Shown one piece after another: positions 2,930 to 36,187 of a DNA stretch of 64,000 nt (position 1 is its first letter; the number at the start of each line of letters is the position of its first letter). The notes beneath the pieces were generated by a model that was given only the letters and a program-made list of their open reading frames with translations, ran no database searches and was not told where the DNA came from. Source of the DNA: Candidatus Micrarchaeota archaeon (GTDB lineage Archaea; Micrarchaeota; Micrarchaeia; Norongarragalinales; Norongarragalinaceae). Location: assembly GCA_016207165.1 (NCBI GenBank), contig JACQQD010000009.1, positions 64,001-128,000 of the forward strand. Direction: 5' to 3'. Both the position numbers and the translations under genes were made by a program.

Positions 2930-3811
2930 TTAAACCCTTGATTTGTTTTGTCCCTGCCGCGTCAACACGACGACTCCAAACCCGATGAGGGCGGCGCCGG
3001 CCAATTGAATGGCGGTCATGGATTCGCCGAGAAACGCCATGGCGATGAGGGCGGTGGAGATGCCGGCGGTGAAGTTGGCCAGCGAGGAAATCGAGGGGCC
3101 TTCCGCGTCAATGGCGCGGAACAAAAACAGGATGGCCAACGCGGTGGTTAGGCTTGAACCCACGACTTCCAGCCAAACCGGTTGCAGGGTGTGCAATTGG
3201 TTAGGCGCCAACACGACGACGAGGCCCAGCACGAACAAGGCGCTGAAGAAAAAACGGGCGTAGCTGACGGAGTCCGGCTTCGTGTGGTCCATGATTTTCT
3301 TGCTGTACGCGTTGTTGAACGCCAGACACAAAACGGCTCCGAACACCGAAGCGTCTCCGATGTTGACAGTGGAAAAGTCTTGCCGGAAGGCAAGCAATGC
3401 CGCGCCGGCGGTCATGACAACCAAAATGGCGTAGAAATGCTTGGGCAGGGATTCCTTGACGAGGGCTTTGGAGAACACGACGGTGAACACCGGAATGAGG
3501 GCCAACAGAAAGCCGAGGTTGGTGGCGGTGGTGTGGACGAGGCCGAACATGATGAACAAGTACCCCAAACCCGATGACGTGATGCCGTTGACGGCCAATT
3601 CTTTGGGGTATTTTCGGATGGCGTCCACGGTTTTTTGGTTGAGGAAGAACGGCGTTAACGCCAAAACGGCGACGAGGTTGCTGGCCAAAGCAAACCAGTA
3701 AATGTTGGCTCCGGCGTCCACCGCGATCTTGGTCAGGATGACGGAGGCGCCGGTCAGTATGGAGAACGCGGCGAGGTTTTTCACGGCGTCGGGTTTCATG
3801 GAAGCGTTCAC
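2930..3811 (-). CDS. DMT/EamA family transporter
   Basis: About 10 hydrophobic segments in two repeats; C-terminal FLGE...QLAGAALI motif. Confidence 0.9.
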   Translation of the reverse strand: MNASMKPDAVKNLAAFSILTGASVILTKIAVDAGANIYWFALASNLVAVLALTPFFLNQKTVDAIRKYPKELAVNGITSSGLGYLFIMFGLVHTTATNLGFLLALIPVFTVVFSKALVKESLPKHFYAILVVMTAGAALLAFRQDFSTVNIGDASVFGAVLCLAFNNAYSKKIMDHTKPDSVSYARFFFSALFVLGLVVVLAPNQLHTLQPVWLEVVGSSLTTALAILFLFRAIDAEGPSISSLANFTAGISTALIAMAFLGESMTAIQLAGAALIGFGVVVLTRQGQNKSRV

Positions 3812-3864
3812 GGCAAACCGGCTTTTATAGGCGTTTGGGCAATAGCTTGTCCGAGTGATTTTTT

Positions 3865-4419
3865 GTGTCTTTAGAAAAAACCATTGCGCGCATTGACGGG
3901 GAATTGTCGGAAAAGGAAAAGCGCCAGGACGTCGTTTTGGCGGATTCGCGGGTCGTGATTCGAAACTGCGCGAAAGCGATCCGGCACCTTCATACGGGCG
4001 ACATGGCGGAGGCCAAGAAAGTCGTCAAGGCGTTGGACGCCGACGTGGCGGCTTTGAAAAAAGTGGCCCAGGACTTTGAGCACATTGCTTCCAGCGCGTA
4101 CCAGGAGTACGTGGAAATCAAGTGCCTGCTTTCGTTGTTGGAGAAAAAAGAGCTTCCGACTCCTGGTGACCTCAAGGTGGATGACCAGAGTTATTTGGCG
4201 GGGTTGGCGGACTGCGTGGGAGAGCTTCGGCGGTCGCTTCAATTGGCGCTGAAGGCCGGAAAGAAAAAAGACGCGGATTACTTGTTTGGAAAAATGAATT
4301 ACATTTACGACCATTTGATGTTGCTGAAGTACTCCAGTTCCCTGGTGGGGCCCTTGAAGCGGAAGCAGGACATGATTCGAAGCCAAGTCGAACAAGCGCG
4401 AAGCGAGCTCTTGCGATAG
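3865..4419 (+). CDS. Translin family (archaeal C3PO-like) RNase
   Basis: QEYVE and YLAGLADCVGELRR motifs, LKRKQD near the C-terminus, all-helical. Confidence 0.85.
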   Translation: MSLEKTIARIDGELSEKEKRQDVVLADSRVVIRNCAKAIRHLHTGDMAEAKKVVKALDADVAALKKVAQDFEHIASSAYQEYVEIKCLLSLLEKKELPTPGDLKVDDQSYLAGLADCVGELRRSLQLALKAGKKKDADYLFGKMNYIYDHLMLLKYSSSLVGPLKRKQDMIRSQVEQARSELLR

Positions 4420-4548
4420 GAATTTGATTCGCGCGCAAGTCGGGGGTTCGGGGAAGCGTAGGACTATAGGGGGCGGAGCCCCCTGTGGTCCGGCAACGAC
4501 ATGATTCGAAGCCAAGTCGAACAAGCGCGAAGCGAGCTTTTGCGTTAG
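4369..4548 (+). repeat. 51-bp direct repeat of the translin gene 3' end (4369-4419 / 4498-4548) around a 78-bp hairpin-containing insert
   Basis: 49/51 identical; hairpin at 4461-4491. Confidence 0.95.
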
Positions 4549-4557
4549 TTGCCGCGT

Positions 4558-4764
4558 TTACTCTTGGTTGAACGTTTTTTCGTCCGGCGTTTCCGTGTTG
4601 GACTGAATTTGATTGGCTGGTTTCACGGTTTTTTCTTGTTTCGCGTCTTCGCTTTGGTTTTCGTCGTGCCCGACTTCGGCCTGGAATTGGATGGTGGAGT
4701 AGATGCCGACGATTAGAAGTCCGATTAAAATGATGACGCCGGCGGTGGCCAGGTTCAGTTTCAT
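4558..4764 (-). CDS. Small membrane-anchored protein
   Basis: N-terminal hydrophobic helix followed by a polar tail; 68 aa. Confidence 0.65.
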   Translation of the reverse strand: MKLNLATAGVIILIGLLIVGIYSTIQFQAEVGHDENQSEDAKQEKTVKPANQIQSNTETPDEKTFNQE

Positions 4765-33871: not shown

Positions 33872-34011
33872 TCACTGGACGATGTGGTCCAGGGGTTGCA
33901 TGCGGTAGTTTTCGCTTGGTCGCCCCGGGGAACCCAGGTTCCCCTGGCCCGCCCTGGGCCTCGCCCCTCCTATTGGACGATGTGGTCCAGGGGTTGCATG
34001 CGGTAGTTTTC
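33872..34011 (-). repeat. 42-bp direct repeat of the lrp gene 3' end (33970-34011 / 33872-33913) around a 56-bp hairpin insert
   Basis: 38 bp identical; CAA TAG versus CAG TGA at the end. Confidence 0.95.
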
Positions 34012-34585: not shown

Positions 34586-36025
34586 ATGAGCAAACAGGTG
34601 TTCGTGGAAGTGCCTAAACCGCAGGCGGGAATCGACGTCTTGTCCCGCATGAAGGAAGAACGCATTTCGTGGGTGGACTTGCAGTTCGTGGACCTGGTTG
34701 GCGCGCTTCAGCACATCAGCGTTCCGGCGCACACCCTGGACGAAAAAGACTTTGAAATCGGTGTCGGGAAGCTGGACGGCTCGTCGATCAAGGGTTTCAA
34801 GGAAATTTTTGAATCCGACATGCTTCTGTTGCCCATTGCCGAGACGTACCGCAAGATTCCGTGGGAACAGGATACGGCTAGAATTTTTTGTGGCGTCAAG
34901 GAAGTCTCCGGCTCCCGTTTTTCCAAGGACTCGCGGCATACGGCCGAGAACGCGGAAAAAGTGTTGGCTCAGAACGGGTTTGACACCAGTTACTGGGGTC
35001 CGGAAGCCGAGTTTTTCGTTTTCGACGAGGTGCACTACGACACGACGAACCCCCATCGGGGCCAAGGCTATTCCGTGGGCTCCATTGAGGCCGCGTGGAA
35101 TCCCACCGGAAAAGGGTACCCCATTGGGTTCAAGGGCGGCTATTACCCGGTGCCGCCGGCGGACACGTTGCAGGACCTCCGCCGCCGCATTTCCGACTCC
35201 CTGCAGAATGATTTCGGCATCCGGGTGGAAGCACACCACCACGAGGTCGCCACGGCCGGCCAATGCGAGATCAACATGCGGTTTGACAAGCTCACCTGCA
35301 TGGCCGACAATTTGTTGACGTTCAAGTACGTGGTGAAAAACCTGGCATACCAATCCGGCAAGATTGCCACGTTCATGCCCAAACCCATGTTCGGCGACAA
35401 CGGAAGTGGGATGCACACCAACCAAAGCATGTGGAACGCCGGCAGGAACCAATTCTACGACGCCAACGAGACGTACGCGCAATTGTCGCAGAACGCCATT
35501 TACTACATCGGCGGCCTCGTCGAGCACGGCCGCTCGCTGGCGGCGTTCTGCAATCCCACGACGAACTCGTACCGGAGACTGGTTCCCGGATACGAGGCGC
35601 CCGTGTACTTGGCGTACTCCAAGAGCAACCGGTCGGCATGCATCCGCATTCCGTACTACTTCTCCAACGAAGTCTCCAAACGCTTGGAGTACCGGGCCCC
35701 CGACCCCACGGCCAACCCGTATCTGGCGTTTGCGGCACTGGCGGCCGCGGGCTTGGACGGCATTAAGAAGAAAATCATGCCTCCCGCGCCTGTGGACGCC
35801 AACATTTACCACATGACGGTGGCGGAGCGCCGCCAGCACGGCATCAAGGAACTGCCTGGCGCCTTATTGGAGTCGCTGCACGAATTGGAGTCGGACCGCG
35901 ACTTTTTGAAGCCGATTTTCGCGGACGACTTGGTGGATTCGTACTTGACGCTCAAGTACGCGGAAGCCAACGCCGTTGGAACCCGGCCGCACCCGTATGA
36001 GTTTGACTTGTACTTGAACTCGTAA
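34586..36025 (+). CDS. glnA: Glutamine synthetase type I
   Basis: DGSSI, GPEAEFF, HHHEVA, TFMPKP..GDNGSGMH, NSYRRLVPGYEAP, NRSACIRIP, EYR.PDP. Confidence 0.97.
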   Translation: MSKQVFVEVPKPQAGIDVLSRMKEERISWVDLQFVDLVGALQHISVPAHTLDEKDFEIGVGKLDGSSIKGFKEIFESDMLLLPIAETYRKIPWEQDTARIFCGVKEVSGSRFSKDSRHTAENAEKVLAQNGFDTSYWGPEAEFFVFDEVHYDTTNPHRGQGYSVGSIEAAWNPTGKGYPIGFKGGYYPVPPADTLQDLRRRISDSLQNDFGIRVEAHHHEVATAGQCEINMRFDKLTCMADNLLTFKYVVKNLAYQSGKIATFMPKPMFGDNGSGMHTNQSMWNAGRNQFYDANETYAQLSQNAIYYIGGLVEHGRSLAAFCNPTTNSYRRLVPGYEAPVYLAYSKSNRSACIRIPYYFSNEVSKRLEYRAPDPTANPYLAFAALAAAGLDGIKKKIMPPAPVDANIYHMTVAERRQHGIKELPGALLESLHELESDRDFLKPIFADDLVDSYLTLKYAEANAVGTRPHPYEFDLYLNS

Positions 36026-36187
36026 GCCCCGGGGGAAAGCGTTCCCCCTGGCGCTTACTCCGCCTCGCCCCCTTCGGTTGGGCGTGGCGGATTCAAGGCG
36101 GCCGTGAACGCTTTAAACCGCAACACCCAAAGGAAGGCAATTCGGGCCGGTTCTGCGAAAGCGGGCCGGCTCGTTTATTTCTTATTT
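36022..36187 (+). other. Structured intergenic region with three hairpins; the last is followed by a T-rich run (terminator-like)
   Basis: Stems at 36022-36058, 36059-36091 (cTTCGg loop) and 36143-36173 (GAAA loop, G-T pairs), then TTTATTTCTTATTT. Confidence 0.65.

Follow-up and report, generated by a model that had tools for sequence, protein, structure and literature searches.

The stretch analysed here, a window of 64,000 nucleotides from a Candidatus Micrarchaeota archaeon (C9:64001-128000 of genome G000, an assembly of 1.27 Mb in 12 contigs that is 90% complete), contains a translin-family gene whose 3' end is duplicated on either side of a 78-nt spacer (4420-4497), and this spacer is a member of a lineage-specific family of small mobile elements without coding capacity, which we refer to as E. 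Nearly all copies of E lie at the terminus of a gene and are followed by a 17-107-nt duplicate of that terminus. We are highly confident of this descriptive part, that is, of a non-coding mobile family which sits at gene termini beside duplicates of those termini. The best explanation overall, to which we give an even chance, is that E at these termini moves as a cassette together with a gene end of its own.

The translin gene (open reading frame (ORF) 3865-4419) matches Pfam Translin PF01997 with an E value of 5.1e-8 and 33.6 bits, the cut-off being 25.9. Its end forms a 51-nt direct repeat (4369-4419 and 4498-4548) with 96% identity and a spacing of 129 nt. As the initial annotation had it, the last 17 codons recur and the gene-adjacent copy differs from the displaced copy only synonymously: there are two differences, CTC/CTT at 4410 and CGA/CGT at 4416, and both are silent in the frame of the gene. 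The copies are identical over 41 nt and both differences fall within the last 10 of the 51 nt (P 0.035 for such an identical prefix). The 14-bp stem with a GGA loop that had been noticed at 4461-4491 was also found, with 86% Watson-Crick pairs and with T.G pairs, on the plus strand, at the remaining two positions. Three further details of the initial annotation fared less well. What was taken for a degenerate third copy is a real similarity (14 of 18 positions, 4425-4442) but represents the conserved leader of E and not a gene end, and is also seen next to tRNAs and genes of other kinds; the inverted repeat of 7 bp that brackets the second copy (CGGCAAC/GTTGCCG) is present but is no feature of the family, being absent on inspection from the junctions of other copies; and nothing points to repeated insertion at the translin site. 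The underlying idea of a miniature element at gene ends stands.

The C-terminus of the translin protein reads ARSELLR before the stop codon, and SE(M/L)LR is native to the family in relatives. We had considered E as the supplier of a C-terminal LLR plus stop codon, with which both the translin gene and a gene on contig C8 end; this was ruled out for translin, where the ending is native in relatives. None of the 29 translin loci inspected in relatives has a second gene-end copy within 170 nt downstream. In L012, from the relative G009, sequence resembling the leader and the start of the G-rich box directly follows the translin stop codon, with neither hairpin nor duplicate, and may be a decayed insertion at the same site. 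ARAGORN found no tRNA gene within the window, and Rfam has no family for the locus, the sole match scoring 14.4 bits against a gathering score of 44.2.

Population evidence came from four DNA runs of a single study (X1-X4, of which X1 may be the source sample), as contigs assembled with short words rather than as single reads. The contigs of X1-X3 break at the translin repeat, yet they cover every junction with 0 mismatches (3400-4398; 4380-4471, in which both letters specific to copy 1 lie; and 4464-4721). X4, another sample, has a 276-nt contig that leads from 4302-4368 directly into 4498-4706, skipping exactly 129 nt and carrying the copy-2 letters, again with 0 mismatches. Since this contig lacks exactly the 129-nt unit, the X4 allele is an empty site, and the translin insert is real and polymorphic in the sampled population. 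The empty allele, in which the translin stop codon lies 9 nt from the convergent 68-aa ORF 4558..4764 on the minus strand, may be ancestral, or may have arisen by precise loss through a crossover in the 41-nt identical block. The initial proposal that the element brought an allelic gene end agrees with the X4 copy-2 allele, but precise loss via the 41-nt block fits equally well.

The translin spacer is far from unique. A BLAST search of 4369-4560 against its own genome found the spacer on three other contigs, at 97, 88 and 85% identity, and profile searches of G000 recovered further, more diverged copies. E is ~55-80 nt long and has a T-rich leader, which is followed by a G-rich box, a GC hairpin whose G.U/G.T pairs are strand-specific, and a short tail; 22 element cores, aligned as A1, have in common the G-rich box, a linker and the GC hairpin. 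A covariance model built for the family (R1) gave 23 copies in G000; G001 and G002, which are of the same genus, have 20 and 18, G009 has 14, and 36 further relatives have 0-2 each. Across a sample of the phylum the model matched 4 of 151 genomes, G000 among them. Many copies in few genomes, with near-absence elsewhere, argue that the family is a young, lineage-specific burst. The ~80-nt spacer had been proposed initially to be a miniature mobile element without a recombinase inside, and this is borne out by a dispersed family with 23 copies in G000 and no internal gene.

The sequence of the element itself is under constraint. In A1, nine of the 13 hairpin pairs change on both sides, and one position has U.G pairs in 8 sequences; the covariation score was reached by 0 of 500 column shuffles, which is an indication and not a probability, because element copies are related. 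At a gene end on contig C10, the element differs between G000 and G001 at only 4 of 52 nt, and one of these changes compensates for another in the stem, whereas the flanking gene has reached saturation at its synonymous sites. The two ends of E are unlike each other, with leader and G-rich box at one and hairpin and tail at the other, and neither A1 nor the table of junctions contains terminal inverted repeats. Two element patterns gave 0 matches in a collection of viral contigs.

In order to find repeat-flanked copies, we scanned G000 for direct repeats at a spacing of 25-400 nt, which gave 89 pairs, and inspected the 36 with repeats of at least 18 nt and spacers of 40-180 nt; together with copies inspected separately, these yielded 21 element-bearing sites. 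The initial annotation's idea of an element at gene ends is borne out by these 21 sites, which lie at termini and carry the hairpin element; mismatches in the coding repeats among them are overwhelmingly synonymous. E targets tRNA genes at the 3' end and protein genes at either end: the 21 sites comprise eight tRNA genes, of which seven have the element at the 3' end and one has it in the 5' part, nine protein-gene termini with differing repeats (six 3' ends, three 5' ends) and four termini with identical repeats. Sites at aclB/aclA and thiI were among those recovered in G000. Repeats at tRNA 3' ends start in the T-arm or T-loop and stop 1-4 nt beyond the discriminator base; at a ninth tRNA site, tRNA-Leu on C6, the duplicate is degenerate. 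In G001, G002 and G009, 47 of the 55 element matches have a flanking repeat (repeat score of at least 12), although these 55 are not all separate sites, because some loci were matched on both strands.

The arrangement is polar. At all checked repeat-flanked sites, for genes on either strand, the box side is turned towards the intact gene's terminus and the hairpin side towards that edge of the displaced copy which is gene-internal; beyond the displaced copy the original flank resumes. At gene 5' ends the element is antisense to the gene. Repeat boundaries lie within 0-4 nt of stop codons or tRNA ends. The window holds two further members of the family (Table 1), one with a displaced gene end and one without a detectable repeat. 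At the former, and at C3:43946, the differences between copies are confined to the last base or bases and the stop codon, which is supplied by the 5' edge of the element.

Table 1 Coordinates of the translin locus and of the other family members in the window.
Feature	Position	Strand	Basis
Translin-family gene, intact, 184 aa, ends in copy 1	3865..4419	+	ORF list; Pfam Translin PF01997
Copy 1, functional gene end	4369..4419	+	Direct-repeat comparison
Copy 1, identical block	4369-4409	+	Comparison with copy 2
Copy 1, diverged terminal block (CTC TTG CGA TAG)	4410-4419	+	Comparison with copy 2
Element leader, T-rich, motif TTTGATTCGCG	4420..4438	+	Motif recurs after gene and tRNA ends, many copies, four genomes
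Element G-rich box	4439..4453	+	Best-conserved block of A1
Element hairpin: arms of 14 nt around a GGA loop, with T.G at two pairs on + strand	4461..4491	+	Arm complementarity; covariation
Variable tail, hairpin to copy 2	4492..4497	+	Tail length 0-7 nt among copies
Copy 2, displaced gene end; sequence is that of the empty-site allele	4498..4548	+	Repeat comparison; X4 contig
Convergent 68-aa ORF, context only, no Pfam match	4558..4764	-	ORF list
Second member, displaced copy: 38 identical nt, then CAG TGA in place of the functional copy's CAA TAG	33872..33913	-	Copy comparison
Second member, element (G-box and hairpins)	33914..33969	-	R1 match C9:97914-97972
Second member, functional end of minus-strand gene (ends IVQ-stop, CAA TAG)	33970..34011	-	Repeat scan
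Solo member, no detectable flanking repeat	~36022..36075	-	R1 match, E 5.6e-7

Where the two copies of a coding terminus differ, they do so overwhelmingly at synonymous positions. The nine differing repeats of G000 contain 41 nucleotide differences in 396 nt, corresponding to 31 synonymous codons, 2 stop-to-stop changes and a single non-synonymous codon (Ala/Thr at C11:53669). Random placement of the same differences gave a mean of 28.5 non-synonymous codons, and in 0 of 20,000 simulations was the number one or lower. The most striking case is an 84-aa gene on C10, the last 26 codons and stop codon of which are repeated after the element, with 16 of the 26 sense codons recoded and all amino acids identical; the recoding includes AGC versus TCT for serine and TGA versus TAG as stop codon. 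Many repeats in G001, G002 and G009 likewise differ at every third base, and divergence between copies forms a continuum from none to saturation.

For the relatives, we scored 17 sites where the copies show two or more differences and the frame is unambiguous (gene-side open frame of at least 125 codons); of these sites, 16 have an ortholog in G000. Excluded from this scoring were tRNA sites; L192, with one difference (Arg/His); L213_276, the displaced copy of which contains a stop codon; several sites whose frames are short or ambiguous; and two sites in L216 with many non-synonymous differences, which look like repeats inside a repeat-rich protein or between paralogs. The 16 sites have 79 synonymous and 14 non-identical codons between copies, 3 of the 14 lying outside the coding part, and at the same residues the functional copy differs from its G000 ortholog at 54 of 236 positions. 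In L210 of G002, 25 of 35 codons differ between copies with 0 amino-acid changes, and the G000 ortholog differs at 9 of 34 of those residues. A displaced copy free of selection cannot yield 31 synonymous changes against 1, which, on codon comparison, argues that both copies must have been shaped by selection at the protein level.

Two other cases concern repeated coding ends. In L110:340-740, a metagenome locus from a distant low-GC relative (among 62 metagenome loci of the C10 gene end), a C10-type gene end is duplicated around a 225-nt insert with an ORF for a 73-aa membrane protein; by our own count on the printed sequence, the duplicate has 10 synonymous and 3 conservative codon differences. 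Since the insert is a different one, gene-end duplication is not tied to one hairpin family. At C11:95444-96135 of G000, three tandem small ORFs with the common C-terminal peptide NGLPNMVGGC, which differ there only synonymously, are real paralogs and have no association with the element.

Several repeats are mosaics. Of the 39 repeats that have two or more differences, 7 are identical over a significantly long block in the gene-internal part and have all their differences towards the terminus (combined P 2e-4). In L206, an identical stretch of 68 nt precedes 27 nt with 8 differences, and single repeats switch sharply from 0% to 20-55% divergence. Other repeats differ along their whole length.

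The same targets are occupied across species. At the C10 gene end, G001 has the same element subtype with a duplicate of its own, the junction being ~5 nt away, and G002 is empty, so that empty alleles, the occurrence of which the initial annotation had proposed to look for in relatives, were found both here and, in X4, at translin. At the tRNA-Pro 3' end, G000, G001 and G002 all have one and the same element subtype, and the tail is shared as well. A further internal hairpin, ~40-50 nt long, occupies the same position in the copies of G000 (C8:6293-6405) and G002 (L212) and is lacking from that of G001. A TnpB-type gene in G002 (C32:1009-1729; L226, L055) ends ~270 nt upstream of a small gene whose 3' end is empty there and filled in G000 and G001. 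At C6:20897-21150 and C8:8540-8800 of G000, two opposed elements with their hairpin ends outward lie between a tRNA gene and its displaced 3' end, a composite layout which resembles a transposon with inverted ends. Another family of repeats in G000, ~100-124 nt long, has a palindrome inside and 92-98% identity between copies (C9:27414, 46793, 53700; C7:5927, 33178; C8:84129, 138340; C2:27097, 33876).

A possible mechanism, which we favour tentatively and rate slightly below an even chance, is that E belongs to a non-autonomous cassette which arrives with a gene end of its own, can integrate and leave again, and depends on mobilisation in trans. The mobile unit would be a replacement gene terminus, from a few bases plus stop codon up to ~100 nt, followed by E, and it would enter and leave by recombination at the gene-internal part of the repeat. 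The enzyme would act in trans, candidates being the ~400-aa tyrosine recombinases of G000 or host homologous recombination. With the cassette in, the gene would be read from the cassette's end, and with the cassette out, from the chromosomal end; being read from either end in turn, both copies would be kept under protein-level selection and would drift at synonymous sites only, sometimes to saturation. By analogy, the arrangement of e14 and phage 21 in the Escherichia coli icd gene would be the simplest known scheme that gives selection on both copies. A miniature form of it could account for the identical inner block with a diverged end, for repeats that start in the tRNA T-loop, for the fixed polarity, for precise empty sites and for the same targets across species. 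It would also resemble integrative elements that use the part of tRNA genes from the T-loop to the 3' end.

Classical integration occurs in G000, as judged from an 11.7-kb island (C1:152884-164770) in an intron-bearing tRNA-Met gene, which carries a 372-aa integrase and has a 13-nt attachment (att) repeat at C1:164683, with a solo element just outside the att repeat. This integrase is one of three tyrosine recombinase genes of G000, none of which lies inside the element (78-nt insert at translin); the other two are ~400-aa paralogs with 60% identity (C3:309-1529, C5:32405-33694). The initial annotation had suggested a search for HUH/Y1, IS110, tyrosine recombinase or reverse transcriptase genes flanked by the same hairpin. 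Tyrosine recombinases are present elsewhere in the genome; no IS110 transposase or reverse transcriptase (RVT_1) was found in G000, and Y1 transposase (PF01797) and Cas1 (PF01867) gave 0 matches in this 90% complete assembly. The Cas12f/TnpB-type domain PF07282 gave 0 matches in G000 and G001 and is present in G002 and G009, and therefore was rejected as a partner of the element. A scan for a larger autonomous version, covering 81 pairs of repeats 0.4-60 kb apart, gave none that ties element modules to a gene-carrying insert.

A number of observations weigh against the cassette mechanism. No gene lies inside the element and no mobilising enzyme was identified; the ~400-aa recombinase family, which occurs in 4 of 4 element-rich genomes, also occurs in 16 of 37 element-poor ones, so its distribution does not follow the element and it was rejected as a tracker. 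A double-stranded circle of ~130 bp is physically awkward, and the scheme does not account for how such a unit recombines; more than 20 targets for one family are unlike a sequence-specific integrase; and strongly diverged repeats such as L210 have no identity block above 12 nt for recombination. A universal rule that differences lie on the terminus side was rejected, as the polarity holds in only 7 of 39 repeats. Repeats without differences (43 nt on C3, 49 nt in L222) equally fit a plain duplication made at insertion, and the empty allele of X4, which may be the ancestral state or the product of loss in one direction, need not reflect reversible integration. Four solo copies in G000 lack a repeat, three of which abut, by the hairpin side, a tRNA end or its displaced copy. 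Finally, the synonymous bias is strong but not absolute, because some displaced copies clearly decay: tRNA ends are degenerate at C6 (tRNA-Leu), L179 and L200, the displaced copy of L213_276 holds a stop codon, and downstream of L209 the frame is shifted.

The same arrangement could be produced by plain transposition with a long, variable target-site duplication, if cuts were made 17-100 nt apart, only terminus-spanning insertions survived in so compact a genome and the differences arose later. Perfectly identical repeats (41 nt at C12:63294, 43 nt at C3:43946, 38 nt at C9:97876 and 49 nt in L222) and the unbroken range of divergence are what this account would lead one to expect, and a stop triplet often present in the 5' edge of the element could make insertions at stop codons harmless. 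However, a neutral displaced copy should gather mostly non-synonymous changes, and the counts are 31 synonymous against 1 in G000 and 79 against 14 at the relatives' 16 sites. Neither the sharp switches of divergence inside repeats nor the fixed orientation follow from it, boundaries keep within 0-4 nt of stops and tRNA ends even though selection would allow longer overhangs, and the Y1, IS110, Cas1 and RVT_1 families were not found in G000. We consider plain transposition unlikely.

Protein-level constraint on both copies would also follow if E were intron-like, with one repeat unit cut from the RNA at a bulge-helix-bulge or similar structure, so that spliced and unspliced RNAs encode the same product. 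The strand-specific G.U pairs of the hairpin and the wealth of intron-bearing tRNA genes in G000 are in keeping with such processing. Copy 1, though, always has its own stop codon and splicing is therefore not needed; the element is antisense to the gene at 5' ends; the tRNA introns of G000 lack it (21 intron-bearing predictions inspected); and a scan found no consistent bulge-helix-bulge at the junctions, the 17 top hits (score 10) being palindromes within the repeats at no fixed position. An apparent enrichment of this motif in the true register (22% against 6% scoring at least 9) was discarded as an artefact, since it arose from a comparison of sequences that are identical and every one of those 17 hits is an internal palindrome. 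Altogether, an intron-like nature is very unlikely.

Marginally less probable still is guide-like homing, in which the element would be an RNA scaffold, the displaced copy 3' of the hairpin a guide for the native allele, and the functional copy recoded to escape self-targeting. The attraction of this idea is that it accounts for the fixed order of scaffold and repeat on either gene strand, for the native-like sequence of copy 2 and for synonymous-only recoding; against it, G000 and G001 have no Cas12f/TnpB-type domain despite 23 and 20 copies, Rfam gave no match, and young copies, including that at translin, are identical over 30-41 nt next to the hairpin, where a seed would lie. The alternative offered by the initial annotation, a structured RNA presenting a copy of the gene end, has no support, with no Rfam family and no Cas12f/TnpB-type domain in G000 or G001. 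An assembly artefact, in which versions of the gene end from two strains were joined one after the other, is barely credible: the two translin differences do look like strain single-nucleotide polymorphisms and the evidence is from short-word contigs and not single long reads, but the same junctions were assembled independently in X1, X2 and X3, so that the suspected chimera is not upheld, and the spacer is a dispersed element with the same architecture at dozens of sites in four genomes.

Going beyond the cassette mechanism, one may picture terminus-swapping cassettes as a class: non-coding parasites of ultrasmall archaea that carry a synonymously recoded gene end and, by toggling or by readout at the RNA level, would keep two differently coded versions of the same protein or tRNA end alive over evolutionary time, using machinery of an undescribed kind. 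Such machinery could perhaps be guided by structure or homology and act on the strand-specific hairpin. We regard this broader picture as rather improbable.

If the cassette carries a recoded gene end, mobile DNA of less than 100 nt and without coding capacity could colonise a genome nearly free of intergenic space without gene breakage. Synonymous-only divergence of a seemingly unused copy is a natural test for hidden DNA or RNA rearrangements in uncultured DPANN archaea, and it bears on the origin of inserts in archaeal genes and tRNAs and of att sites in protein genes. In practical terms, element repeats can mislead gene callers and assemblers, and paired recoded ends are ready markers for element gain and loss in populations.

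The closest known parallel is found in E. coli, where e14 and phage 21 integrate in icd. There a gene end of its own comes in with the element, and on excision the chromosomal version takes over again; the loss of e14 swaps the icd end for icdC, with several synonymous and two conservative changes (PMC13626634). The likeness to this system and to tRNA integrative elements lies in a direct repeat of the gene end, the adjacent copy of which restores the gene, in copies which differ mainly synonymously, and in a precise loss that leaves the gene intact. In contrast, the inserts described here are 55-130 nt long, non-coding and without integrase, and one family has more than 20 targets per genome, gene 5' ends included, with repeats of 17-107 nt.

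Mobilisation in trans, as proposed here, has a counterpart in the cis-mobilisable elements (CIMEs) of Streptococcus, non-autonomous att-flanked elements which are mobilised by the integrase of an integrative and conjugative element (ICE). Both have att-type repeats at a gene 3' end and no recombination genes of their own, but CIMEs are kilobases long and are deletion derivatives of one ICE at one site, not dispersed hairpins. With repetitive extragenic palindromic (REP) sequences and bacterial interspersed mosaic elements (BIMEs), palindromes derived from IS200/IS605, and MITEs (miniature inverted-repeat transposable elements), E shares small size, non-coding and multi-copy character, an intergenic position in compact genomes and a strand-asymmetric hairpin. 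REP and IS200-type sequences, however, lack target duplication and need a Y1 transposase, whereas E has long repeats and no Y1 was found in G000. E is non-coding and multi-copy (23 in G000) as MITEs are, but these have terminal inverted repeats and short duplications of fixed length, and E has unlike ends and 17-107-nt gene-end duplicates.

Among archaea, transposed tRNA introns and tRNA fragments from integrating elements are described for Caldiarchaeum (PMC3293823), the insert there being a 1.8-kb recombinase-encoding element or else a true intron. The resemblance is in small archaeal elements, partial tRNA copies at tRNA loci and heterogeneity within the population; the elements described here differ in having no bulge-helix-bulge at their junctions and in targeting protein genes as often as tRNAs. 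A search of the literature, with supplementary files outside its range, gave no published description of such elements, and none of the described types of mobile DNA fits the combination of a non-coding hairpin and a synonymous gene-end duplicate. The ingredients, att-type integration and small hairpin repeats, are known ones, and there is a real chance that the mechanism which combines them is of a new kind.

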